From assembly GCA_030390025.1 (NCBI GenBank), contig CM059447.1, forward strand, positions 33,604,001 through 33,668,000: a DNA stretch of 64,000 nt, read 5' to 3'. The stretch is from Squalus acanthias. Taxonomy: Eukaryota. Position numbers and translations under genes: made by a program. The notes beneath the pieces are model-generated. The model was not told where the DNA came from and ran no database searches. It saw nothing but the letters and a program-made list of their open reading frames with translations. Shown in pieces: positions 5,824-59,199 of this stretch. Positions within the stretch are counted from its first letter, which is position 1; the number at the start of each line of letters is the position of its first letter.

Positions 5824-7327
5824 ATGGGGCCTCTACTTACAGTGAGGCAGCAAAGACAAGCTGCTCACAGAGGGAGGGGAGGAGGGCTCTCAGCAGGAGG
5901 CCTTACCCCACTAGAGTCTTCAGGGAGCACTTCTCCTCCCTGCACTTAAGCCAGTAACGGTGTATTAAGAAGCTCCGGTTCACCAAGGAAGTGGTCACAG
6001 AACTCTGCCACCTCTTACAACCAGACCTGCAGCCTCAGAGCAGGGTGACGACGGTGCTGCCAGTGGCCCTCAAGCTGACCATAGCCCTGAACTATTTTGT
6101 CACCAGATCCTTCCAGTCCGGAGCAGGTGACACAGCTAACATCTCCCAGTTCGCCATTGATCACTGCATCCGGGAGAGTCACAGAGGCTCTGTACTCCAG
6201 GAGAAGGGACTTCATTGTCTCCTCTCTGAACAGAGAGAAGCAGGAGGAGCACGCATGTGGCTTTGCCAGGATATCAGTCTTCCCCATGGTGCAGGGCGGC
6301 ATCGACTGCACACACGTGGCTATGTGGGCGCCGCATATCAATCCTGAGATGTACCGCAACTGCAAAAGCTACCACTCTCTTAATGTGCAGTTGGTGTGCA
6401 ACCACGCCCAGCGCATCATGATGGTGAATGCCCTGGCAGCAGTCATAGAATCATAGAATGGTTACAGCACAGAAGGAGGCCATTTGGCCTGTCGATCCCA
6501 TGCCGGCTCACTGCAAGAGCACTTCAGCTAGTCCCACTCCCCCGTCCTTTCCATGTAGCCCTGCAAATTTTTTTCCTTCAGGTACTTATCCAATTCCCTT
6601 ATGAAAGCCACGATTGAATCTGCCTCCGCCACCCTTTCAGGCAGTGCATTCCAGATCATAACTACTCGCTGTGTAAAAAAGAACCATGTCGCCTTTGGTT
6701 CTTCTGCAAATCACCTTAAATCTGTTTCCTCTGGTTCTCGACCCTTCCACCAATGGGAACAGTTTCTCTCTATCTTCTCTGTCGAGACCCCTCATGATTT
6801 TGAACACCTCTATCAAATCTCCTCTCAACCTTCTCTGCTCTAAGGAGAACAACCCCAGCGTCTCCAGTCTATCCACGTAACTGAAGTCCCTCATCCCTGG
6901 AATCGTTCTCGTTAATGATGCCTTCATCCTGTGCCAGTCCGCTGTGCCAGCAATCTTCCAGCTCCCACGTCGAACCCGAGGGTGGCTGCTTGGAGACAGG
7001 GGGCTATCCACTCTACACCTGGCTGATGACTCCGCTCTGCAACCCCACCACTCATGGCCACCATTCATATAATGAGAGCCATGCTGCCAAGCAGACCATC
7101 GGGGTGCTCAAGCAATGGTTCTGTTGCCATGATTGCTCGGGAGGAGCCATCCAGCACACATCAGAGTGGCCTGCTGCATCCTCCACAACTTGGCTATCTT
7201 GAGGGTGCAGCCCTTGCCACCACGGGTTCCGTGACCACCAGAGGAGGAGGAAGGGAGGAGACAGGCAGCAAATCCTCATTCCGGACAGGCTGTCCGTGAG
7301 TGCCTCATCAGACTCCGATTCCCCTGA
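5824..7327 (+). pseudogene. Harbinger transposase (HARBI1-like DDE), frameshifted and interrupted by CR1
   Basis: RRPYPTRVFRE, LRFTKEVVTELCHLLQPDL, VALKLTIALNYF, FPMVQGGIDCTHV, YRNCKSYHSLNVQLVC, GSS/HDAF, GWLLGDRGYPL, acidic tail, then LIRLRFP*. Confidence 0.92.
6447..6914 (-). mobile_element. CR1 LINE 3' fragment inserted in the transposase
   Basis: SYVDRLETLGLFSLEQRRLRGDLIEVFKIM is the CR1 ORF2 C-terminus. It has an (ATTCTATG)n tail and splits GGCAGCAGTC|ATGATGCC. Confidence 0.92.
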
Positions 7328-20566: not shown

Positions 20567-21347
20567 GGGGGCGATTTTGCCAGCCCTGGGGAGGCGGGAC
20601 TGCCGGAAAAATGGAAGAATCTGGGAGCGGGTACCCATCCCGCCACCAACCCGCCTCCGTGCCATCTTCACCGGAGGCGGGTACCCGACCCGCGCTGGGA
20701 GCCGCCTCCCCGAGGCGGGAAGGGGATTAGTGCCAATTAACTCCCTATTTTCAGCCCTGAAGTGTGGGCTGCCCGACGGCTCCGAACCTCACCAGGGTCA
20801 GCGAGGCGGGCCGTCGGTCTGCGGGGGTCGGAGGGGCCGAGATGTCCCGTGTGCAGGTGAGTGATGGGTGCAAGTGTGGAGAGGTAAGTGTGTGAGGTGT
20901 GTGTAAAGTGTTTTAATAAGTTTGACTTACCTTTACTTCTTCCTGCAGGCTTCCTCCCTTCAGGTCTCTGGAGTCCCTCAGCTCACCGGCACAGAAAGCA
21001 GAATGGCCGCTGAACTGTCAAAAGCTGCAGCCTTCTGCTTTCTGCTCAGGAGAGCTCTTTAACTGAGCCTGTGTCCCAGGACTCAACTTCGAGGACAGAT
21101 TGTCAGTGTTGGACAGCTTCACAGAGCTCTCAAACAATGACATTTCATCTGTCAAAAGCTCTTGACAGATGAAACGTCACCTGTAACCGGCTTTCCCTTA
21201 ATTGGCCTGCTAAGCCCGCTGGGCGGGCTTAACAAGGTCAATCAAGGGAAAATAGCGTGAGTTGGCCACAAGTCGATGGAGGCGGGACTAAAACCCGACA
21301 AGTGGGAGTCCCGCCTCCAAAAGCTCCCCATTGAGAAAATCACCCCC
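20567..21347. mobile_element. Harbinger-type MITE with TTA TSD
   Basis: TIRs GGGGGCGATTTT / AAAATCACCCCC, with TTA at 20564-20566 and 21348-21350. Confidence 0.88.
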
Positions 21348-33436: not shown

Positions 33437-34126
33437 GGGGGAAAAATTGAGTCACGCCCTTTTTGGGGCGCTAACTTCGCTGAAAAAATTAGCGCCCCCG
33501 CGGCCAAAATTCATCGGTAGCGCCCCGAGAGGGAAGCAGGGTGCTACTGGAAGCGCCCCGCCTCCCTCTTGGGGCGCTGCGAGTGAATATCGTGGCACAT
33601 CGTGCGCGGCACGGCAGGCCTTCCTCCCCTTCTTAAAGGGGAGGGGCCTTACGCAGCACGACCCAGGGCCCAGCTGGGCCACCAGGGATCGGAGTGCTGG
33701 CAAAAGAGCCCGGCACTCAAGAGAAGCGCCGTGCTCATGGAGCGCAGCTGGCACTCCGCAGGGGGGCTGAAGAGGAGGCCGGGGCCGGCAGAGGGGACAG
33801 GTGCTGGCAGGTGGCCAGCAACAAAAATGGCCGCCCGGCACCTTCCCTTTAATTAGCGCCGCACGTAGGCCCCCTTGACCCCGTCGAACATAGCGTCCGG
33901 CGGTAAGTCAGGGGGCGCTACCGAAGATCGCGGCCAGGACGCTGCGCACGGTGATCACGTCATCGCCAGCGGCGCGGGGTGCTAACGGTTACCGCCGCCG
34001 CTAACCTCCCGCTGAATTTCGCGGGAGGTGTTGGCGGCGCCGCGCCTGGGCGCTAGTTGCTTTGCGCCCCGTTAGCGCCCTCTCAGGTCGCTAACTTGAG
34101 GCGCAAAGCAACCGAATTTTTAGGCC
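33437..34126. mobile_element. GC/CpG-rich Harbinger-type MITE with TTA TSD
   Basis: GGGGGAAAAATT ... AATTTTTAGGCC, with TTA on both sides and many TAGCGCC/GGCGCTA repeats. Confidence 0.78.
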
Positions 34127-38840: not shown

Positions 38841-39555
38841 GTGGGCACCTGCTGCCTCTGCCGGGAGGGAAATCATCTCACCGGAGAGGTTTCCCACCAG
38901 AAACACGCTCCGAGTTGCAACATGCCCCTCGGTCATTAGTAGGCAGGCAGGTGTTTAAAGTTACACAGGACGAGTTTGATAAAAGACTAGCCGGGAGCTG
39001 GGAACACTGCACCATTCCCATCTGTTCTGTAGGTCACGGTGATAAAGAGAGGCATTATAGCAAATAGAGGAGCACAGCAAAAATGACAGGATCTGTTGAA
39101 AAGTGGAATATAAATATCTTTTGTCCTACTTTTTGTCGATTCGTTATCTTATATATGTTGCATTTATTGCAAGCAAATGGAAGCATCGTAGGGAGAATTA
39201 CTTTTAATAGAGCTTGCCAAAATGCTGCCCACGATATAAGCATATGTTCCCACCTGTAGGTCAGTTTAATAAATGGGCAGTGTTAAATGTTGTAATGTGG
39301 AGTCTGGGTACAAGGGATCTTAATTCTCAAATAGTTTTCACTCTGTTCACCCGCTGTAGCAATTTGTTGAATATATTATTCTGTGAGTACCACTGTTGTC
39401 TTACTGGTTACTGGCTGCTGGTTATTTGTGGTGTAAATGTGTCAGTTGGTGGTGTAGGAAATGCAACCTTCATACTGAGCGTTCACGATGATGCAGTTAA
39501 CACTCCGACTGTTGTTAGAACACCTAATGCATTTTACACTTGAAATTAAAATCAT

Positions 39556-40319
39556 GGGCCAGAAATTTGGCTCTCCACGGGTGAGTACGCGCTGTGTACT
39601 CACCCGTAGACCCAATGAAAGTGCCGGTTTCGCGCATGCACTGCGCATGCGCTGGAAACCGGAACTTCCGTTCCCTTGAAGGAAGGGGTTCGGAGGTCAA
39701 ACGCGTGCGCCGTTGAGACAGCGCGCACGCATCGGACTTCTGTTTTTTTTTCAGGTTTCTGTGTGAGGGTAAGTCCCCAGCAGCTGCGCGGGGAAAAAGC
39801 AGGCGCAAGGCCTGCTTTTAACAAGGTAAGTGATGAATTAACTAAAATTAAAACATTTTTTCCACAGGTTTATTATTTTTAAATACCTTAAAGAAAGGTA
39901 AGTTTATTTTTAGCCCTGTTAAAAACTGTAATTAATTTTTTCAAAAATTTAAATTATTGTTTAAAATAGTTATTTTGTGTAATTTATAGTTATTTTAAAA
40001 ATGTGATGTTTTTTTAAAATTTATTTGACGTTTTAGTGAGGTTTTGGGGCCGATCTCTATTCATAGATTTGACAGGTCTTCCTGTCAAATCTATGAATGG
40101 AGATTCCCTGCTCCGATTGGCTCTCCATGGCCCATGTGATCCCAGGGGATGCTTCGAACTAACTGCGCCCCTGGGATATGCAAGCCCTGCACACCGGCAG
40201 GTGGAGGAGGCCCAGAAGCCGAATTCAACGCGGGCCCAGAGCACAACGGCAGGCGCGGTAGGTAAGTGCAGGTTGGGGGCTTGCGCCCGCGGGAAGCCTC
40301 CGACCCGAATTTCTGGCCC
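39556..40319. mobile_element. MITE family X copy A (structured, Harbinger-like ends)
   Basis: Perfect 12-bp TIRs GGGCCAGAAATT / AATTTCTGGCCC, GC-rich arms and an AT-rich centre; colinear with 52163-52905. Confidence 0.88.
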
Positions 40320-40434
40320 AATATTTTCTGCCACATTGAGAAACAGAACATGCCTCTACTTTTTCCTTTTTATATAGTTACTAAAATTTCTTTGACATCA
40401 AGTTAAGCCTATTAATTTTCTACAATAAAGAAAA

Positions 40435-45576: not shown

Positions 45577-46849
45577 AGATACGTTGTTGAACTACCCTCG
45601 GCCGCCCGCTGGATTTCAGGGATGTGTTAGGGAGGAGGATTCGGGAGGGTCTCATAAGAGGGAATCTGGGGAAGGGGAGGCCACGACATTCCCTGTGGGG
45701 CCCAGAGGAAAACTCCCACTCCTCCTGGGCCCCACAAAGGAGAATTTTAGACTTAACAGAAGTAAATGTGTCGGTTAAAAGTACAATCTAACATCCATTA
45801 ACATTTCGCAGTCCCGCTACCAAAGGCACCTGACATCACAATTTCTGAGATTTATATCAGTAGTTCCATCCAATTAAGAATGTTCATTAAATAAAATTGC
45901 AACGGCAAAATGCTGCTCCGGAGAATGTATCAGAGCTCACGTCTGTGATTCTCCACAATATGCGCTCCTAACCTGGGCTGGATCATGAAGAGGGGAGGAG
46001 TCAGACAAGGGTAAAGGCCATGCACCTCCCTGCACACTCACCCACCCACCCCCCGCCTGATCTTTGACAGGATGTTACCCTTCATTGTAATCGTTAATGT
46101 TTACATTCGGCTGCAATTCAACTCTTCAACCTGATCTTATCCAACAAGCTATGTGGAGTGCGGAATTAGGAAAGAAGTGTAAGAGCATGAAGCGTTTTGA
46201 CGGACTGGAACATGTAAACTCTCGCACCGACAAGCAACAAATGTCTAATAACACTTACACAGACAGTGAATTTGCTCAGTTTGCCCTGTAAAATTCAACA
46301 AAAAACTTCGCTAATACTGATGATTTCAGCAGAAAATATGGGGCGAGAAATTGGGCTCGGTAACGCCCGTTTTTTTTTATGCTACAAGTGCCCTCCGAGT
46401 TCCACAATGGCGTCTGCGGTATGCGTGCACACTTTGATGCGAAGCACGTCGGACGCCATCTTGATGCAGGTGTTAGCGTGCATGCAGTGAACGTCCGCCA
46501 GAAGTATGCAGAGCAGACAGCACATGACATCAGCGTGCAATGTTGATTTGGCGCCAGTGCTGCCATTTTACAGCTCAACGGTCCAGCTAACGCCCTCTCT
46601 TAAGCTCGCATAGCTGAACACACATTAAGCAGCAGGAAGGACCCCCCACCAGCGCTATTTAAAGGGATCATCAACTACTCACAGGATAGTTGCTGGTTGA
46701 TTTCTTCTGGCTGTTGCTACAATTCTACACATTTTTGGTGCTTTCCATAGTTGTTTCAAGTTTCAAAAGTCCACAGGGAGCGGTGTGGCAAGTGTTGAAG
46801 TACTTTTTGCTGACTTCAAGGCTTCTGCACAAGCCAGTTGCTCCCAGAC

Positions 46850-47956
46850 ATGGGTGCACTAGTAGACATTCATCTTGAAATAGCGCATGACTGGGAGAAT
46901 TAGCTGAGGCCACGCTGCAAGAAGAGGCTGTAGGAGGAGGGGGAGAAGGGCTCTCAGCAGGAGGCCATATCTGCCTAGGATGTTCAGGGAGCAATTCTCC
47001 TACCTGAATCTCAGTGAGGAACAATGTGTGAGACGTCTGCATTTCACTGGCTGCAGCAGTTGGCAGATTTTAGAGCAAGGCAAGGACAGCATTGCCAGTG
47101 GCTGCAAAGGTGACCATGGCGATGAACTCATATGCGTCTGGCTCCTTCCAGGCTGGTGCTGGAGATATTAGCAGCATCTCGCAGTTTGCCGTCCACTGAT
47201 GCACAAGGGAGGTCATTGAGGCTCTCCATTCAAAGAGAGCTAACTGCATTTCATTCTCTCTTGCCAGAGACAAGCAGGCGGAGCGAGCACGAGGGTTTGC
47301 TCAGATTGCAGGCTGCCATTGACTGCAAGCACATTGCTTTGTGGGTGCCTCTGCCATGTACTGGAACCGAAAGGGATTCGACTCCCTCAGTGTCCAGCGG
47401 GTGTGTGACCATAAGCAGCGTATCATGCAGGTCAATGCCCGGCATCCTGGCAGCAGTCATGATGCCTTCATTCTGCGGCAGACCGTTGTGCCAGCTGCAT
47501 TTCAGCCATCACGGCAAGCGAAAGGGTGGTTACTGGGTGACGTGGGCTATCCGCTGACAACATGGCTCATGACGTCGGTGTGCAACCCATGCACACGTGC
47601 ACAGCATGTAAACAATGAGAGCCATGCTACCACAAGAAATGTGATAGAGCAGACCTTTGGCGTGCTGAAGCTACGATTCCACTGCCTGGATCGCTCTGGA
47701 GGATCCCTGCAGTACTTGGCTAAGCAGGTCTCAAGAATCGTGGTGGCGTGTTGCACAAACTTGCCATCATGAGGGGACAGCCTTTGCCATCATAAGCAGA
47801 AAGCCCTTGCCACCAGCTATCAGCCGAGAAGCTGAGGAGCAGGAGGATGAGGATGTGGAAGAGGAGGAGGCGGAAGAGGAAGGGAGGCGGCAACCTAGAT
47901 AACCCCTTTCTGCCTAGGCTGTACTTGAAGAACTAATTCGAGTGAGATGCCAATAA
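46850..47956 (+). pseudogene. Harbinger DDE transposase, frameshifted
   Basis: RRPYLPRMFREQFSYLNLSEEQCVRRLHFT, AIDCKHI, NRKGFDSLSVQRVCD, HPGSSHDAFIL, GWLLGDVGYPL, NESHATTRNVIEQTFGVLKLRFHCLD, and an acidic tail. Confidence 0.93.
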
Positions 47957-48154
47957 CTGCAACCCGAATTCCCCATTGTACAACAGTCCCACACTCCCTC
48001 TGTCACTGACCACCACATCGTCCCCTTGGCCACAATGCAAAAATAAAAGCCACCACAAAATAAACATTCCAAACCAAATTTATAAATGAAATCATGCCAT
48101 ATTGCATACAAATGTAAACTAGTCACCATTGTGCATTCCCTTAGTGCCTATCTT

Positions 48155-50050
48155 TCATGTGCCTTTGCCTGTCCTAGTGCTCCTACGCAGTGCTACCCCA
48201 GTGGCTGCGGCATGGCTGGTGGAAGGCTGCTGACTTTCAGTGGAGGAGACTGCAGATGGCCTTGGAGGATGACCTCGAGCAGCTCTGGGCCTAGAAGGCC
48301 CAGCTTCAGACTGCATCATCTCAGCATAGGCGGCGGCTGGCTGGCTGACAGGCAAGATCAAGGGCACTGGCAAAGTGGCAGAGGTGGGAGGACAAATGCT
48401 GTCATCCTGAGAGAGGACGTCAGGCTCGTGCTCCATGGAACCATTGCCACTACCCTGGATTGGCACCTCAGCAATCCTAGTAATCTGTTGGAGGACAGAT
48501 TGCTAAACTGCTGTGACACCCTGCAAGCCCCTTTGAACACTGGCATCCACAGCCATGCTGGTAGCAGTCTGAGCTTGCATGGCAGCAAGCTGAGCTTGCA
48601 TGAGAGCAGTCTGAGCTTGTATGACAACAAGCTTACCTTGCATGACAGAAGTCTGTTCTTCCACTGCAACACCCAGACTTTGGGTGGCTTCTGCTTGTGC
48701 TGCAATGGAAACTGAGACATCGGCCATCAGACGCTGCATCATGGTTGGGTCCAAAAGTCTGTTGATGGAGTTGGCCACCATTTCCATGCTGGAAAGGATT
48801 GGCTCCAAGCTCTGGGCAAAGCCTTGTGTCAAGTTGGTGCAGGATTCCTCCGTGCTCCTTGACATTGAATGCAGCTTTCTGGCAGGCTTCCAAATGCGTC
48901 AAGCATTTTGTTGTGTATACCCATCAGCCGCCTTCTGTAGCCTGCCCCATCGAAGTGCTCATCTGAGTGCTTTGCAGCAGAACTCATGTGCGACCTTGCC
49001 CTACAGCAAGCTGGCACCTATGCTATCCTTGCCCCCTGCCCTAGCTGCAGCGCACTTGTGCCCGGTGTCTCACCATGTGCCGATCCCACCTCTAATCTAT
49101 CCTCTAAGATATGCGCAGTGTCAGTATCTGTGCTGGTGGCTGCAAGCTTGAAATTAAGTGACTGTGTGTCTTCATCCTCACTCTATTCTTGGTCTTCCTC
49201 CACTACCTGGCCAGGTTGCACTTCTTGGGTATCTGAAAGGACAAAGGCACAAGGTTAAGGTTGTGGTGAGGGGAGTTGGGGGGTGGGGGTGGCGGAGAGC
49301 AATGTAAGAGGTGCGTGCTTACACCATCTGCAGCTTGTAAATCAGAAGATATTATGGGATGAGGAGGAAGTAGGATGTGAGAAGGAGGATTAGGTATGAG
49401 GATACAGTCATCTGCAATGGTTTCAGCCCTGCCGCTGACCACGGCCTCAGCAATGGCACTTCCGATAATGGCCAGCATCATCATCTCCATGGGGGTTAGA
49501 GCATGCAGATGCGCCTCTCCCCCTCCAGTTAGTTCCTGCTGCTTTAGTTGTGCGCCACCTTCTCCTGCAAGAGAGAGAGAAGCGTGTCAGTGAGTGCCGT
49601 GCAAGCAGTGAGACGTGGGTATGAGGCTTGCAACAGTGCTTGCAACAGTGCTAAGTGTGTGAGGGTGAAGTGAAGCATATGAATGTTAGGTATGAGTCGT
49701 GATTGATAGAGATTGCTGGGAGGTGAGCGATAGGTGTGTGGTGATTTGAGCAGTGGCTGAGGCTAGTGGTGCAGTTGGTCAGATATGGCATTTGAAGATG
49801 CATTCACTGACCTTGACCTCTCATGTGAGGTCATTAAACCTCTTGCAGCACTGCATCCAGGCCCTCAGGGCTAAACTCCTAGCATTGACCTCCGTGGCTA
49901 TCTGCTCCCATTGCCTTTTGACCGTGTGTCTGGAGGGACTCCTGGCCCCCTGCTGATACAGGACATCTCTCCTCATTTCCACCTCCTCCACCAAGACCTC
50001 CAGTGCAGCCTCAGAAACCTTGGTGCACGCTCTCTCCCATGGTCAGCCAT
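48155..50050 (-). pseudogene. Harbinger Myb/SANT-like gene, 3 exons (50050-49812; 49564-49406; 49232-48155)
   Basis: MADHGRERAPRF...WEQIA...WMQCCKRFNDL, with GT-AG introns at all junctions. Exon 2 reads EKVAHN..QQELTGG, and exon 3 ends ALRRSTRTGKGT. Premature stops are present. Confidence 0.9.
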
Positions 50051-50864
50051 TGTTGTTTGTTGCACAGCACTATTCCGAATGACGTCAGCACCTCCAGCAG
50101 CCACAATGCACCTTCTCTTTAACAGGTGAAGGCTAGCTTTAAGCAGTGCAGGCTAGCTTTAAGTAATGCTTGTGAGTATCAATTTTGGGCCCCCTGCTGA
50201 TGCGTGCAGCCAATCAACAGCACGGTTAGCGCTGGCTACACGGAGAAATCATGTAAATGAGCTGGCAGCACGAAGATGCTGTGCTGCCTACATTGCATCA
50301 AATGGGCGCAGGTTAATCGCGCATCGCGATTCCCGCGTCCGTTTTCGGGGACGATTCAATTTAGCCCCCTTGATTTCCAAATTAATCTTGTATTTCCTTT
50401 GAAGGGGTCAAGGTGTTTGCTAAGTACGTTATGGCATCTATATAGATGAAAGCAGGAGAAGCATCGCTTGCTTAGCCCTGGGTTTCATGCTGCCCTCATA
50501 TGCATAGCTGGCAAATTGAGCCAGCAGCCTTTTGCATTTCCAATCATTTTGAATGAAGATCACAGAACCTGCTAAAGGATTCGTGACCCAAATCCTGGAA
50601 CTTATCCAGAGCTTCTATAGCACTCTGTCTATAAAAGAAGCCGTTCTAATCCCACCAGTGTGAACCCTGACCTATGTGCCAATGGGTTCCTAAGGAAGCG
50701 ACGTGTGAACCGTTGCAAAATCCAAGGAAACACATTCATCACAAAGTGTACTAACTGACTAATTAATGTAGAACCTGCTCTTCTGAGAATGTTAAGAAAG
50801 ACCGTAGCAAATACAATGATGCATTTACATCATGCTTATACAATGTAGACAGCTTTTATATCTT

Positions 50865-52162: not shown

Positions 52163-52905
52163 GGGCCGAAAATTGATCCCAGGACGCGAGAGTACGCACT
52201 GCGTACTCTCGCGTATTCCCACTCCAATTGCCGGTTTTCTGCATGCCCTGCGCATGCGCTGAAAACCGGCAATTGCTCTTCTGAAAAGGGGGCGGGGCCT
52301 GGGTGCATCGCGTGCGGCTACAGGCTGCGCGCACGCTGTGCACTTCATGCTTTGGACGCGCAGGTAAGTAGGGAAGATTTTGGAAATGTAAAAAGGAGGA
52401 GTAAGACCCGCTTTTAAGAAGGTAAGTAGTGAATTAAGTATTTTTTTGAATTTTTTTTTACAGGTATATCTTTTTGAGAGACTTTAAAGACAGGTAAGTT
52501 TATTTTTATAACTTTTTAAAAGATTTTAAATTTTTTCAAAAATTTAATTTTTTATTTAAAATGGTTAATTTAATTAACTATACTTATTTTATTAATGTGA
52601 TGGGTTTTTTTTTAAATTTAATTGAGGTTTAGCTGTTATTTTGGGGGGGTGTAAGATTCATAGATTTCACAGCCATGCTGTGAGACTTATGAATGGAAGA
52701 TGGTGTGCTGCCATTGGCTCTAACTGAGTCACGTGATCCCACAGCTCGCACGAATTCACTACGCCGCTGGGATACGCAAGCCCAGCACAGCTGATGTCTG
52801 GAACATCAAGTTCGTGCGAGCTGGATCTGAAAAAGCATAAGCGAGGTGAGACATCGCGGGGAAGGCTTACCCCCGCGGGAACAGAGCGAGATCAATTTCT
52901 GGGCC
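52163..52905. mobile_element. MITE family X copy B with ATT TSD
   Basis: GGGCCGAAAATTGAT / ATCAATTTCTGGGCC, with ATT at 52160-52162 and 52906-52908; colinear with 39556-40319. Confidence 0.85.
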
Positions 52906-52908
52906 ATT

Positions 52909-55128
52909 ATATTTAGTTTGAAAGTGATTTAGTTAAATCCGAAACTAGGGTCTTAAATCTAAACAAAGCAAACTACATAGGTATGAGGGGCGAGTTGGCT
53001 AAGGTAGATTGGGAAACTACTTTAAAAGGTATAACAGTAGACAAGCAATGGCTAGCATTTAAAGAATTAATACATAATTTACAACAAATATGCATTCCTT
53101 TAAGGTACAAAGACCCCACAGGAATAGTGGTCCAGCCATGGCTAACAAGAGAAGTTAAAGATAGTATTAGATCAAAGGAAGAGGCTTATAATGATGCCAA
53201 AAAGAGCAGTAAGCCTGAGGATTTTAGAATTCAGCAAAGGAGGACCAAGAAATTGATAAAGAAAGGGAAAATAGAATATGAGAGTAAACTAGTGAGAGAC
53301 ATAAAAAACAGACTGTAAAAGCTTCTATAGGTATGTAAAAAGGAAAAGATTAGCGAAGGTAAATGTGGGTCCCTTCCAATCTGAGACAGGAGAAATTATA
53401 ATGGGGAATAAGGAAATGGCAGAGAAATTAAATAAATACTTTGTTCTGTCTTCACGGAAAAAGATGCAAAACACCTCCCGGAAATAGGGGAGAACCAAGG
53501 GTCCAGCGAGAATGAGGAACTGAAAGAAGTTAGTATTAGCAAAAAAGTAGTACTGGAGAAATTAATGGGACTGAAAGCCGATGAATCCCCTGGACCTGAT
53601 GGCCTACATCCTAGGGTTTTGAAAGAGGTGGCTATGGAGATAGTGGATGCATTAGTTGTCATCTTCCAAAATTCCATTGATTCTAGAACGGATCCCGTGG
53701 ATTGGAAGGTAGCAAATGTAACCCCACTATTTAAGAAAGGAGGGAGAGAGAAAACGGGGAACTACAGACCAATTAGCCTGACATCAGTGGTAGGGAAAAT
53801 AATAGAATCTATTGTTAAGGACGTGGTAACAGGGCACTTAGAAAATAATAATAGGATTGAGCAGAGTCAACACAGATTTATGAAAGGGAAATCGTGTTTG
53901 ATAAATCTGTTAGAGTTTTTTGAGGTTGTAACTAGCAGAATAGATAAGGGGGAACCACTGGATGTGGTGTATTTGGATTTTCAGAAGGCATTCGATAAGA
54001 TGCCACACGAGGTTATTAATCGAAATTAGAGCTCATGGGATTGAGGATTGGTTAACGGACAGAAAACAGAGAGTAGGAATAAATGGGTCATTTTCGGGTT
54101 GGCAGTCTAACTAGTGGGGACTGCAAGGATCAGTGCTTGGGTCTCAGCTATTCACAATCTATATCAATGATTTGGATGAGGGGACCAAATGTAATATATC
54201 CAAGTTTGCTGATGATACAAAGCTAGGTGGGAATGTAAGTTGTGAGGAGGATGCAAAGAGGCTTCAAGGGGATATAGACAGGCTAAGTAAGTGGGTAAGA
54301 ACACGGCAAATGGAATATAATGTGGAGAAATATGAAGTTATCCACTTTGGTAGGATAAATAGAAAAGCAGAGTATTTTTTAAATGGTGAGAGATTGGGAA
54401 ATGTTGGTGTTCAGAGGGACCTGGGTGTCCTTGTACATGAATCACTGAAAGTTAACATGCAGGTACAGCAAGCAATTAGAAAGCAAATGGTATGTTGGCC
54501 TTTATAACAAGAGGATTTGAGTATAAGAGTAAAGACGTCTTACTGCAATTATATAGGGCCCTGCTGAGACCACACCTGGAGTATTGTGTACAGTTTTGGT
54601 CTGCTTACCTAAGGAAGAATATACTTGCCATAGAGGGAGTGCAACGAAGGTTCACCAGACTGATTCATGGGATGGGGGGATTGTCCTATGAGGAGAGATT
54701 GAGTAGACTAGGCCTATATTGTCTGGAGTTTAGAAGAATGAGAGGTGATCTCATTGAAACATACAAAATTCTTACAGGGCTTGACAGGGTAGATGCAGGG
54801 AGGATGTTTTCCCCTGGCTGGGGAGTCTAGAACCAGGGGTCATAGTCTCAGAATAAGGGGTCGGCTATTTAGGACTAAGATGAGGAGAAACTTCTTCACT
54901 CAGAGGGTGGTGAATCTTTGGAATTCTCTACCCCAGAGGGCTGTGGAAGCTCAGTCGTTGAGTATATTCAAGACAGAGATTGATAGATTTTTGGATATTA
55001 AGGGAATCAAGGGATATGGTGATAGTGCAAGAAAGTGGAGTTGAGGTAGAAGATCAGCCATGATCTTATTGAATGGCTGAGCAGGCTCGAGGGGCCGAAT
55101 GGTTTACTCTTGCTCATATTTCTTATGT
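52909..55128 (+). mobile_element. CR1 LINE, 5'-truncated ~2.2 kb, frameshifted ORF2 with reverse transcriptase
   Basis: SPGPDGLHPRVLKE, WKVANVTPLFKKG, NYRPISLTS, YLDFQKAFD, QGSVLG, SKFADDTKL, RDLGV, HLEYCVQFW and LWNSLP, with a TTCTTATG tail. Confidence 0.97.
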
Positions 55129-55129
55129 T

Positions 55130-56518
55130 ATCATGGAGATCGTGACATCAGGGAGATCGTGACATCAGTGAGTGTGCAATGCTCACTGGACGTCCGATCT
55201 CCCAACTTCATTATAGCCACTTACCTTAACAGCAGCACAGAACAACGACAGGGAGAGCTGGTGTCTACCAGCAGGAAGCAGGCTGCAGCAGCGATATTTA
55301 AAGGTACCATCCCCAATCAGCTCCACCTAACATGGTTCTGCAGTTTCAGTTCCTGTTTGCTACGTCCTGCAACTGAAACAGCTTTCTTTAGTTCGTTCAA
55401 GTTTTTTTGGTGATGGAGTGTTGATTCAAGTGCAGAAGTCACTCATTATTTGTTAAAGGCTTCTGCTCACAACACTTCCTCACAGTCATGGGGGCTGCAG
55501 GTTTGCGTGATTACCTCAGGAGGATGACGAGGCTGAGGAGGAGGACAAGGCAGATGAGGAGGAAGAGGAGGAGGAGAAGGAGGATGAGGCAGAGGAGGAT
55601 GACGAGGAGGAGCAGGAGGGAAGGCGGAGGCAGCAAGACAATCTGCCTTCTGGACGGGCTGTCCGTGACCGGCTCATCAGACTCGCATGAATGAAACCCC
55701 AGATCCCCGTAGCTCACCACATCCCCATCGTACAATCCCTGTCTCATGCCATATCACAGCATCCTCCTGGGCACAAAGGTGAAATGAAAGAGACCATGAA
55801 ATATTCCAAACACACTAAATAAATGTATCTGTAAACATATCACACATCATATGAATTCTAATAACTAATGACCCTTGTGCCTGCCATAGTTGAATAGCTG
55901 TCATTCTGTGCAAGGTGTGAGATGTGGGTGTTAGTGTTGCTCAGTAGAGATTGTTGGTGGGTGAGTGCTGGGGGTGTGGTGCATTGAGCTGTGTGTGAAG
56001 CTTGTGGTACAGATGGTGGTATGTAGAATTTGTTGAAGCCTTCACTCACCCTGACCACCTGTGTGAGCTCGTTAAACTTCCTCCTGCACTGTGTGTGGGT
56101 CCGGGGGACCACAGTGCTGCCCGTGACATGGTGTGCCACCTCCCTCCACATAGTCTGGCAGACTTGTGGCGAGGGTCTCCTGCCAGTTGGCGGGTGCAGG
56201 ACCGCCCGCCTTCTCTCCACCGCTAAAACCAATGCCTCCAAAGCTTTCTCGGAAAACCTCCGGGCTCTCTCCCTGGGCCGGCGATCTGCCATCAGGATTT
56301 GTAAATAAGTGCTCCTTCTCTGAGCCTTCTTTAACTATCCAATGCACAGAAGCATACTGTGAGGGTGGAATGGGTCTGGGGCAGTAGTGTGAAACAGATG
56401 ATAGTGAATCGGCTGCCCATTTTGCACTTTGCCCTATTTTCTGTTCCGTTGACTTCAATGGGCTGCGAGTTGCTATCGCCCATTTGACACTACCGCTCAA
56501 ACCCAAATTCCCCACCCC
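55130..56518. mobile_element. Harbinger copy 5, double internal deletion
   Basis: The transposase ATG (55488) is fused to the acidic tail (to about 55694), followed by the intergenic segment, Myb intron 1 and exon 1, and the end CAAATTCCCCACCCC. Confidence 0.82.
56050..56292 (-). CDS. Intact Myb/SANT-like DNA-binding exon 1 of Harbinger copy 5 (81 codons; downstream exons deleted)
   Basis: MADRRPRERARRFSEKALEALVLAVERRRAVLHP...MWREVA...RTHTQCRRKFNELTQVVR|GTGAGT, with no stops. The unspliced ORF runs to 55858 (144 aa). Expression is unknown. Confidence 0.55.
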
Positions 56519-59199
56519 ATGAGTCCATAAAATTACGTGCTGATCATGCCATCAATGTCGATATGCACCGATGGATTAAGCACAAAATTAATCACTGGAG
56601 GAAACCACATCCAAAGTCTATATCATAACGTTAGAAAATGTAAACTGTAGTAAACCAACATCAGCAGTGCAGTTGTCAGAGAGGAGGAGTACGGGCAGCT
56701 ATCTGTTTACAATACACTTGTTTCACCATCTATCCCAGACAGTGGGGATGCATTGATTTTTGACAGCTGTTGGAAGTTGTAACTTTGAGCTGTCTCAACC
56801 TTTCTTCCCCCGTGGACACATTCCACAGCACAAAAGTGTCTCAAAATCCGGCCAGAGCTCCAGCTTAATGTCTTAATTGTCTCCTAAGTGTATATTTTTT
56901 TTAGACTATGTATACAATTTTGATATTATTCATGAATGTTGTGAATTTCTGGTGACTTGCTGGTATTCAGATCTGCCTCACATCACTGTGATGTCAGTGA
57001 GTGCACATAACAAGGCTTTTTTGATGTGAACTAATGTGGTGACCAATAACTCACCAGGCTTAAGTGAGCAGCTAAAATGTGAATATTACTAATATTTGAT
57101 TATGAATCAGAGCGGAAGTACCAGCCAACTGGAATATGGTATTGGGTGTAACAAGTATACATCAGAAGTTATACAAGCATTCATCCCATAGCATATTTGA
57201 GGTAGATTTCAACGCCAGCTCCACTGATTAAAAATGGCGTCTAGGGCTATTGTTCCACCTGCCCCTGTACTGATCCCGCCAATCAAAGATACACATGAAT
57301 CGTGTATGACTGCGGCCTCAAACATGATTTCTAATTTGGTAATGGTTCTGAAAGCAGAACTGCTTGAGAAAATAAATGTGTGCCCATGTTCTGGCACATG
57401 TGAAACCTCACCATCCTTCTCATGCTCAATGTGACACTTATTGCAACAAGATGTATTTCTCTTTCTTATTTGTAATGTATTTTATTCTCCTCCAATTTTC
57501 TTTCTGAGCTTCTCTTCCCCCAATCCATACGCCCAAGCGGATGGGCTGGATACCTGCTCCCAGGGTTCCGCCAGTGTCATTCTATTGCTGCTAAGAGGGA
57601 TGTGCAAACAGCACTGGTGCCTGGTGCTCCGGCTTTCCTCTCGTCCTGTGGGGAAGCACCTCTGGCTTCCATTGACTCCCTTCCAATAATAGCATGTGTT
57701 GTAGCTGCAATGCACCCCCAAGAAGGATTTGCGTCAAACATGCAGTTTTTACAATGCTTTTCAGTACACATCCAATGTATGTATTGCTGTTCTTGTTAAA
57801 CTTTAAATGTAAATCAATAAAACATACAGCAGTGTGTTTAGCAGCCAAATTGCACACAGTTGCCCTCTGTGTCATGTTAAATGAGTTATTGCAACTTTTA
57901 GGATGTATAAAACTACAGCAAGTTAAAACTCCAGTCCGAAATGAAACCATTTGGAATTCCAAAAATCTTCCAGTTACATCAAAGAATTGTAGAAAATTAA
58001 CAATTTGTGACTGTGGATAATCCTGGCAGTGAAGGGGGGAAATGATCAGGGAAAGGCTTCCTTTTGGCATTAGTCACATACAACTCTTGATCGGTTGACC
58101 AAGGAGTGCTACTGCTGGTACCTACAATGTTTGCAGCCCATCCTGACAAAGAAAGAAGGCATGATTGGGCAGAGATGGTTCAAAATAGGGAGTAAATTAG
58201 AAAACAAGCATTGTGGAAAAGGAATGCAAGTTACAGTGCGACTGAAACCTCATTAATTTCACTGATTTCTTGCGAATTGAATAAGATATTCAAGCAAGCA
58301 CTTAGCAAAAGCTCAGAAGTTACAGAATGAGTTAGACAAAATGGGGTAGAGTTGCTGCTTTGGACGCAATCGGTGATCCGGGTGCAACTTGCGCTCAAAA
58401 TTGCGCTCGTTTTCTGTATTTATTTTTTTGCTTAAGTTTCCACTCAAATTCATTTGCATATCGCCAAATGTAAAATCTTCCATGAACCAGCACAATCAGA
58501 CAGCATTTTAGGACGTCATTTTTTGGGGGAAAAAGTTGCATTAAATAATATTCCTTGATGTATTTTAGAGTGGTAACCTGGTGCAGTTTTAATAATACAG
58601 CTGAAAATGGGTTTAATCACAAAAATAAGCATTTTTAATCAGTGTCTTGTCCACCACCTCTGAGTATGCCTACTTTAAATAACTGAAAATGACTTAAAAA
58701 ACTATACAAAACCATTTACTCATTTCATTGGTGTACAGTAGTCAATTTCTTAGTAAATTAAATATTTTTTAATACTTAAAAGCTTTTAAAAGGTGCCTAT
58801 TAGTGTCCTTGCATCTAAAAAAAAAGAAGCTTAATTTTAAGAACTTCCTCGAAGGGCCACAAACGGACGTAATTAGTGGAAACTCGCAAAGGTAATTAAT
58901 TTAATCTGGGGGCAGAGCCAGTTTTGTGGATGGGGCCGGCTTCTAGCGCGATGTTTTTTCAACCAGCACAGAAGATTGCGGAAACTCGATTTGCGCTGGA
59001 CGTATTTTGCACTTGCAATTCCTCGATTTTTTTTTTTTTTGCACTGGTTTGGCTGAATTTTGGGCAAATTGGGAAACTCTACCCCTCTATGTATGTGGGC
59101 AATGACAATGACAAAGTTAATTTAAAGCAGGCAAGTGCAAAGGAAGGCAAAATGGGCAACACACTTACTCCACGAATGGTGTTCAAATAGCTAAGGAAG

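Follow-up and report, generated by a model that had tools for sequence, protein, structure and literature searches.

Covarying palindromes of a Harbinger-type MITE as probable protein-binding sites re-matched during transposition

Family X is a non-autonomous, non-coding PIF/Harbinger (PHIS) transposon (MITE) of ~750 bp, for which an autonomous partner was identified. Two of its copies, A and B, lie in the window, i.e. the whole stretch of 64,000 nucleotides of Squalus acanthias DNA that was analysed, and both contain three internal palindromic stems whose arms have changed together between copies. As judged from the sequences, stems 1 and 2 are likely to be symmetric protein-binding sites, and their paired changes are likely to stem from arm-to-arm copying in transposition-linked DNA repair and not from RNA folding. 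An earlier note on this DNA had put forward a structured RNA or a cruciform function, and had listed candidate Myb-type dyad sites and template switching as alternatives; it is these alternatives that the data favour.

Family X and its copies in the window

Copy A occupies 39556..40319 on the + strand (764 bp), and its flanks, CAT (39553-39555) and AAT (40320-40322), are unlike. Its best 40 genomic matches, itself excluded, were 93-95% identical. Copy B (52163..52905, + strand, 743 bp) is flanked by ATT on both sides and belongs to the youngest subfamily, B1, its best 40 genomic matches being 99-100% identical. The two copies could be aligned over 627 bp with 70% identity, which bears out their earlier description as clearly diverged. 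Family X elements are 732-764 bp long, and no frame of at least 120 aa overlaps copy A or B. The terminal inverted repeats (TIRs) of A and B copies measure 12-18 bp with GGSCC..AATT ends. In the subfamily majority of A the left TIR (39556..39573, + strand) has 18 bp, and its positions 13-16 covary across subfamilies with the right TIR (40302..40319, - strand). The TIRs, the lack of long frames and the DDE/Myb partner described below confirmed the earlier assignment to non-coding Harbinger-type DNA transposons. In a genome search of 3.7 Gb, the 21-base core of stem 2 gave 15,998 exact matches (control 0), which corresponds to ~16,000 copies or more; the stem 1 pattern gave 15,731 matches and the stem 3 half-site 64,167 (control 43).

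The mismatched flanks prompted consideration of a Crypton or other tyrosine-recombinase identity, which was rejected on account of the TIRs, the 3-bp span of the insertion and the DDE partner. Flanking repeats of 4-9 bp were found around 0 of 60 copies. Cryptons, as characterised in the relevant passages of PMC3212892, have no TIRs, are bounded by terminal direct repeats of 4-6 bp and encode a YR gene.

Several further elements were recognised in copy A. The extra stems S5 (39702..39730) and S6 (39795..39819) lie downstream of stem 2, and the longest stretch without variation among 17 subfamilies, the splice-donor-like AGGTAAGTTTATTTTTA, is at 39896..39912 on the + strand, with similar motifs at 39767, 39824 and 40260. 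Invariant ATTGGCTC and CACGTGATCCCA motifs, together with stem S4 (40139-40177), fall in 40116..40177; the motifs are presumably CCAAT-box and E-box-like. No strand is assigned to these or any other of the stems. It was also observed that co-oriented splice-donor-like AGGTAAGT motifs with acceptor-like tracts occur at 39767, 39824, 39896 and 40260, and at 52362, 52420 and 52492. Their spacing of ~43 nt seems too short for an intron, and they could be protein sites.

Copy B directly precedes a LINE ORF2-like sequence (52917-55135; RVT_1 match 53436-54026). Other elements of ~700-780 bp with GG-ended TIRs and hairpins of their own were noticed at 20567-21347, 33437-34126 and 58343-59085, the first of which is flanked by TTA / TTA and has a TTGACA/TGTCAA hairpin resembling stem 3.

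Covariation of the stems and the structured-RNA reading

Stem 1 (39577..39607 in A, 12 bp; 52184..52214 in B, 14 bp) belongs to a left-end module common to the autonomous partners. Stem 2 (39619..39667 in A, with one G·A mismatch; 52225..52275 in B, 15 bp) forms the end of that module. Its inner invariant palindrome in A (39634-39650) contains TGCGCATGCGC, which we take to be NRF1-like. Stem 3 is specific to the MITE and absent from the autonomous partners examined; it is a perfect 18 bp in A (40059..40098) and has three mismatches, G·T, A·C and T·G, in B (52656..52694). The arms and coordinates were thus as first reported for all three stems, including the perfect and imperfect forms of stem 3. 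The three mismatches were fixed in 36 of 36 B1 copies, and in the sister subfamily B1b the left arm is matched to the right arm. In individual copies, the tips of stem 2 and stem 3 are where deletions of at least 8 bases are concentrated, and the tip of stem 3 was lost in most D copies.

For the subfamily analysis, 330 loci yielded 244 full-length copies, of which 222 fell into 17 groups with at least 3 members; the remaining 22 of 244, in smaller groups, were omitted. Over the 54 pairs of stems 1-3 in the 17 subfamilies, 16 additional Watson-Crick pair types, in excess of one per pair, were counted, compared with a mean of 4.2 and a maximum of 11 in 2000 runs of a tree-based null that preserves the number of changes per column. 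This margin is somewhat flattered, because only pairs that were Watson-Crick in at least 50% were admitted, a choice in favour of structure, and because the tree ignores mosaicism. In 17 real copies, both sides had changed in 6/35 pairs of stems 1-2 and in 4/17 pairs of stem 3, with far lower values in slid controls, and the covariation score was reached in 0/500 shuffles that ignore relatedness. The paired changes claimed for A and B therefore extend beyond two copies. S4-S6 and the TIRs, which had gone unremarked, covary like stems 1-3 (for the TIRs, 12 extra pair types vs 3.9 expected).

Significant covariation is the kind of evidence from which a structured RNA, e.g. a 5' leader or a small-RNA precursor, might be proposed. 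Several other observations point the same way: the co-oriented splice-donor-like motifs, one of which is the longest invariant run; the location of stems 1-2 in the partner, where they precede the transposase gene; the sequencing contigs, from three runs guessed to be RNA, that cover the 5' half of the element; and the somewhat better folding of the 3' part on the + strand with RNA parameters (z of -2.6 vs 0.4 in A and -3.6 vs -1.9 in B). Nevertheless, we regard an RNA carried by the element as most improbable. Whichever strand was folded, and whether RNA or DNA parameters were used, stems 1 and 2 gave z of -8 to -13 relative to dinucleotide shuffles and stem 3 gave -2.9 to -10, so that stems 1-3 fold equally well on either strand. 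No bias towards G-U substitutions, such as an RNA would be expected to leave, was seen among the masters or in the copies: the distinct mismatch states in the internal stems of subfamilies comprised 8 G·T, 12 A·C and 27 others, and single breaks in inserted copies comprised 62 G·T vs 49 A·C (p=0.25). The sole wobble-like feature is a G·T beside the stem 1 loop, which is kept in 10/17 subfamilies. The youngest subfamily, B1, has a broken stem 3, and stems 1-2 start so close to the end of the element (22 bp) that they are unlikely to be transcribed. An Rfam search with copy A gave no family at the gathering score, with 5 matches at E 0.24-0.96, all far below it. No splice joints were found in the 4/4 runs aligned, out of 17 listed, all as assembled contigs, which carry neither strand nor start position, and over the 5' half. 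Together with decay in inserted copies that is largely like that of the flanks (see below), these results speak against the structured-RNA proposal of the earlier note. They also call for caution in RNA discovery, as a DNA transposon that has no RNA signature can still show significant covariation; wobble bias and strand symmetry distinguish the two.

Jumps, steps and possible selection on DNA shape

The manner in which the arms change together was followed in stem 3. Between B1 and B1b the left arm differs at three of four adjacent bases, and the result is an exact mirror of the right arm. By hand count of the first 100 of 2551 matches to this arm, 76 had all three changes, 22 had none, 2 had one and 0 had two. 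A recombinant between the two arms with an unsampled symmetric ancestor could alternatively account for the B1/B1b jump. Some paired changes went through mismatched intermediates and were no single jump: for stem 1, at least in part, an A·A mismatch, carried by 5 of the first 100 of 15,731 matches (94 were symmetric), and for the C/G pair of stem 3 a G·G mismatch (2 copies). Selection on symmetry could complete such stepwise paths.

These observations bear on the reading that the fold-back shape of the DNA itself, a hairpin or cruciform aiding excision, synapsis or gap repair, has been selected among active masters, the paired changes being true compensatory DNA substitutions. Symmetry has been regained repeatedly: five different perfect states occur at positions 8-9 of stem 3, and in particular subfamilies stem 1 is extended without mismatch to 17-20 bp. 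Mismatched intermediates show that some paths were stepwise. The repeat S5, which is direct in A-type autonomous elements, is inverted in the MITE, and there is little conversion in dormant copies, as selection on masters alone would predict. However, mismatched states of every kind have founded large subfamilies, and very successful ones keep 1-3 mismatches over long stretches of the ladder, such as the T·C of stem 2 in 6/17 groups and the three mismatches of B1 stem 3. The three-base jump was made without two-step intermediates among the first 100 of 2551 matches, the cores do not vary in sequence, and stems 1-2 keep to the sequence of the partner. Selection for shape is thus considered unlikely, and arm-to-arm copying at protein-binding sites is preferred.

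An autonomous partner and the probable exchange of its end module with the MITE

A genome family search for the Harbinger transposase domain (DDE_Tnp_4) revealed the partner, whose complete elements measure 4.5-4.7 kb and carry, between X-type ends, a DDE frame of 384-391 aa and a convergent Myb/SANT gene. An X-type left end was present upstream in 27 of the 30 best DDE_Tnp_4 loci, and in part at one more. Complete elements with an open transposase frame and the Myb gene were found at L362:1263-5775, L363:1225-5726, L365:1190-5787, L368:1212-5883 and L369:1267-5792; at L362, L368 and others, the DDE domain matched PF13359 with E 2e-43 and the Myb/SANT domain PF13873 with E 4e-14. Since several partner loci have identical scores and 391-aa frames, the partner family may have been active recently. 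The decayed Harbingers of the window were considered as the partner and rejected, as X-type ends were absent from all 50 relatives of the 47323-47769 transposase. These decayed elements belong to other families and lie at 46340-50369, 5958-6453, 55861-56334 and 1586-1984, with DDE_Tnp_4 domains at 47323-47769 and 6091-6453 and Myb domains at 55861-56334 and 1586-1984. Besides these, L371-L373 and L376-L378 represent another young family of autonomous Harbingers, ~4.1 kb long, which has GGGGGAAAAATT ends and is flanked by either TAT or TTT.

The partners examined carry stems 1-2, in A-type and B-type forms, and have no stem 3. Between B-lineage MITEs and the partner, identity was 94-100% in stems 1 and 2 and only 41-50% in the next 32 bp. 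Trees were built from 17 MITE majorities and 17 autonomous ends, ends with stem deletions or duplicate sequence being omitted. In the tree of bases 1-113, MITEs and autonomous ends intermingle (D with L348, E2 with L349, B38 with L347/L337, B29 with L339/L341), and a single autonomous clade was rejected (p-AU 1e-7); in the tree of bases 114-262, the autonomous ends form one clade with a support of 99/100. This conflict indicates that the end module with stems 1-2 was repeatedly exchanged, or that it changed in parallel. The last ~45 bases of the MITEs likewise match particular partners, and in all sampled bursts from D onward the end module is 87-96% identical over 1-113 to that of an autonomous element. 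Such exchange would be the expected behaviour of a required cis-element, and passive conversion is possible as well.

The predicted recognition helix of the Myb protein, as translated from one A-type and one B-type partner, is identical, which fits the invariance of the stem cores. Stem 1 is broken in several of the youngest-looking autonomous copies, and one such copy has an arm deletion; this counts against binding sites re-matched by repair. Family X copies were also seen inserted into or beside related elements (L018:902-2626, L005, L374 and L363): an A copy interrupts an older relative, a MITE directly abuts an autonomous copy, and an autonomous copy lies within a MITE.

Active and dormant copies

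The groups can be ordered as a ladder of decreasing age (F, A, A2, C, D, E, E2, B38 ... B1). Their terminal branches are short (0-0.03), F being the exception, and several of them are mosaics of other groups. The median distance to the nearest majority, obtained from 109 copies chosen independently of similarity rank, was largest in F (0.08), followed by A, C and D (0.045-0.07), E (0.03) and B1 (0.005). The trunk changed by 0.54 subs/site from C to B1, compared with a divergence of 0.054 among C copies, and by 0.32 subs/site from E2 to B1, compared with 0.028 among E2 copies. Raw distances (C 0.27, E 0.20) put the trunk at 5-8x copy divergence. It was estimated that the active trunk lineage changes about 5-10x faster than its dormant copies, assuming a sequential ladder and with tree length inflated by mosaicism. 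Over half of the sampled words of B1-like sequence were also present in sequencing runs of six differently labelled organisms, so this young burst may be common to several species.

The earlier note held that symmetry rather than sequence is maintained. This was not what we found. Both sides vary in only 14/54 stem pairs among the 17 subfamilies, and since most pairs never change, sequence is conserved as well as symmetry. Stem columns changed half as often as columns elsewhere (0.54 vs 0.99 changes per column among subfamilies), the stem cores consist of invariant sequence, and stems 1-2 track the sequence of the autonomous lineage.

A different picture was obtained for dormant copies, where stems and flanks were compared in 118 copies of five older groups. 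Decay was alike at CpG (72/1402 in stems vs 357/7340 in flanks) and at other G/C sites (61/4061 vs 341/20974), an outcome that the earlier note had listed as refuting its proposal; at A/T sites, fewer changes occurred in stems (43/5608 vs 219/18793, p=0.010). The deficit at A/T sites counts against strict neutrality, and is compatible with a measure of repair between the arms or with weak selection in the copies. Only 6 mirrored double changes were found vs 453 single breaks. Inherited mismatches persisted in homogeneous groups of dormant copies (25/25, 28/29, 20/20 and 36/36), and among all inherited-mismatch cells 78/1386 were Watson-Crick vs 39 changed otherwise; the 78 cells were mostly clusters of 3-9 copies in mixed groups, which look like sub-subfamilies. 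As mirrored changes were rare and mismatches were kept in dormant copies, re-matching must be concentrated in the active lineage.

The near-neutral decay in dormant copies could suggest that the palindromes have no function at all, and are ancestral inverted repeats kept symmetric by template switching alone while the end module is passively exchanged. In agreement with this, the TIRs and the internal stems behave alike, and in yeast genomes the arms of inverted repeats are homogenised by template switching (PMC13100816, PMC3820800). Among masters, however, the halved rate of change in stem columns is hard to explain without function, as are the invariant runs in stem cores across subfamilies that are only 61-77% identical to F, and the autonomous-like end module of every sampled burst from D onward. 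A lack of function is accordingly judged quite unlikely, less so than a structured RNA.

Target sites and unlike flanks

The target of family X is AWT, the flanks being mostly AAT or ATT. The 3-bp flanks were identical in 112/195 copies and unlike in ~40%; the count omits 49/244 copies with unclear ends or outside the 17 groups. Among B1 copies, the flanks were identical in 17/34, compared with 33 expected from age, and the values for A and F were 6/24 and 13/17. AAT or ATT was present on at least one side in 73/83 unlike pairs. Comparison with empty sites showed that the insertion spans 3 bp and that both flanks equalled the empty site in 21/34 cases. In 10 unlike pairs with resolvable empty sites, the two flanks belong to a single host repeat and are in register; the empty site was matched by one flank in 6 and by neither in 4. 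A directional bias (AAT left, ATT right) appeared in B1 (6 vs 1) but was not significant across the groups as a whole (23 vs 15, p=0.26). The unlike flanks are likely donor bases carried with the ends into the new site. Carry-over of donor bases with the ends was reported for engineered insertions of Pong (PMC11254759, PMC4561436), and comparable carry-over at non-canonical sites for piggyBac (PMC8717057). The ~40% of unlike flanks would be genomic evidence of such carry-over by Harbinger ends.

A proposed cycle of binding, repair synthesis and amplification

The findings above could be brought together as follows. The invariant cores would be bound by a Myb-like protein, the transposase or host factors, and the palindromes would be kept on this account; according to PMC9710019, which cites the finding, the Myb protein of Harbinger3_DR was reported to bind a subterminal motif of 9 bp. 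Copies would be gained through gap-repair synthesis at the excision break, a process that would be error-prone and prone to template switching. Switching within a hairpin would re-match the arms and the TIRs, mirroring the variable positions between invariant cores, and switching between related elements would create mosaic subfamilies and swap end modules with the autonomous lineage. MITEs with the current partner's end module would then amplify, so that selection among masters would favour such ends. Stem 3, with its invariant outer half-site and freely mirrored inner part, is likely a host-factor site or a structural aid to mobility. Repair synthesis was proposed because one known process would give the fast change, the mosaics, the end exchange, the TIR matching and the palindrome perfection. 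In yeast, break repair was found to be 1000-fold more mutagenic, with quasipalindrome perfection and template switches (bioRxiv 10.1101/2023.08.09.552703).

A wider account is put forward here only tentatively. A vertebrate MITE lineage may have chased an autonomous transposon through many bursts by repeated capture of its current 113-bp end module, changing ~10x faster than the host genome, with palindromes that are selected DNA fold-backs or symmetric docking sites re-matched by the transposition cycle. This would amount to a self-correcting cis-element architecture in a parasite of a parasite.

In the literature searched, which did not extend to Repbase, Dfam and subscription journals, no report of family X or of covarying internal stems in Harbinger MITEs was found. 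New here are the autonomous partner, the tree conflict and an active lineage that changes ~5-10x faster than its dormant copies. Family X is a natural record of a MITE keeping pace with its transposase source. Since the partner frames (384-391 aa) are intact, the amplification of MITEs over their partners, a long-open question, becomes directly testable in a vertebrate Harbinger system.

Comparison with known systems

By analogy, family X would work like mPing or Harbinger3N_DR. With Harbinger3_DR and non-autonomous PHIS elements it has in common short GG-starting TIRs, a 3-bp target and a ~4.5 kb partner encoding DDE and Myb/SANT proteins (PMC9710019, PMC4482050), and both have subterminal sites near the end, those of family X being candidates (PMC9710019 for Harbinger3_DR). 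It differs in its target, which is AWT and not TWA or CWG, with flanks identical in only 112/195; in its long internal palindromes with paired changes; and in a MITE ladder whose ends follow the partner. As the PHIS groups are set out in the passages of PMC4482050 that concern them, the strict PIF/Harbinger group has a TWA target, whereas family X is flanked by AAT/ATT; the NuwaI group has a CWG target, from which AWT departs, although the GG(G/C) start and the Myb gene agree; and Pangu has an ANT target, which family X fits, but a second frame with no known motif, whereas that of the partner has Myb/SANT.

The rice Tourist MITE mPing is likewise moved by a two-gene Harbinger, and its internal regions affect mobility (PMC9921582, PMC4561436, PMC11254759). 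The cut is staggered within the triplet at the flank, and this triplet can be carried along by the element (PMC4561436, PMC11254759). The internal effects in mPing were judged not to be sequence-specific (PMC9921582), which counts against the binding-site reading; the internal motifs of family X, by contrast, are invariant over ~40% divergence. Covarying stems, a feature of family X, do not appear in the sections on mPing that served for this comparison (PMC9921582, PMC4561436, PMC11254759).

The re-matching of arms is reminiscent of quasipalindrome correction, in which imperfect arms are made identical in one multi-base step, which is raised in break repair and is accompanied by switches between related sequences (bioRxiv 10.1101/2023.08.09.552703, PMC13100816, PMC3820800). 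That process was demonstrated in yeast reporters and promoters in these sources, whereas for family X it is deduced from a vertebrate transposon lineage. Coral CMITEs also have an interior that is more conserved than expected, which was suggested to aid transposition; they are related to piggyBac, and paired stem changes, as seen in family X, do not feature in the abstract of that report (PMC2872659). For Galileo of Drosophila mojavensis, the ends of one subfamily were found around the interior of another, and exchange was proposed as a source of subfamilies (PMC3573991). Galileo, however, belongs to the P-superfamily and has long TIRs (PMC3573991), whereas in family X the exchange concerns ~113 bp and is repeated along the ladder of the MITE and its partner.
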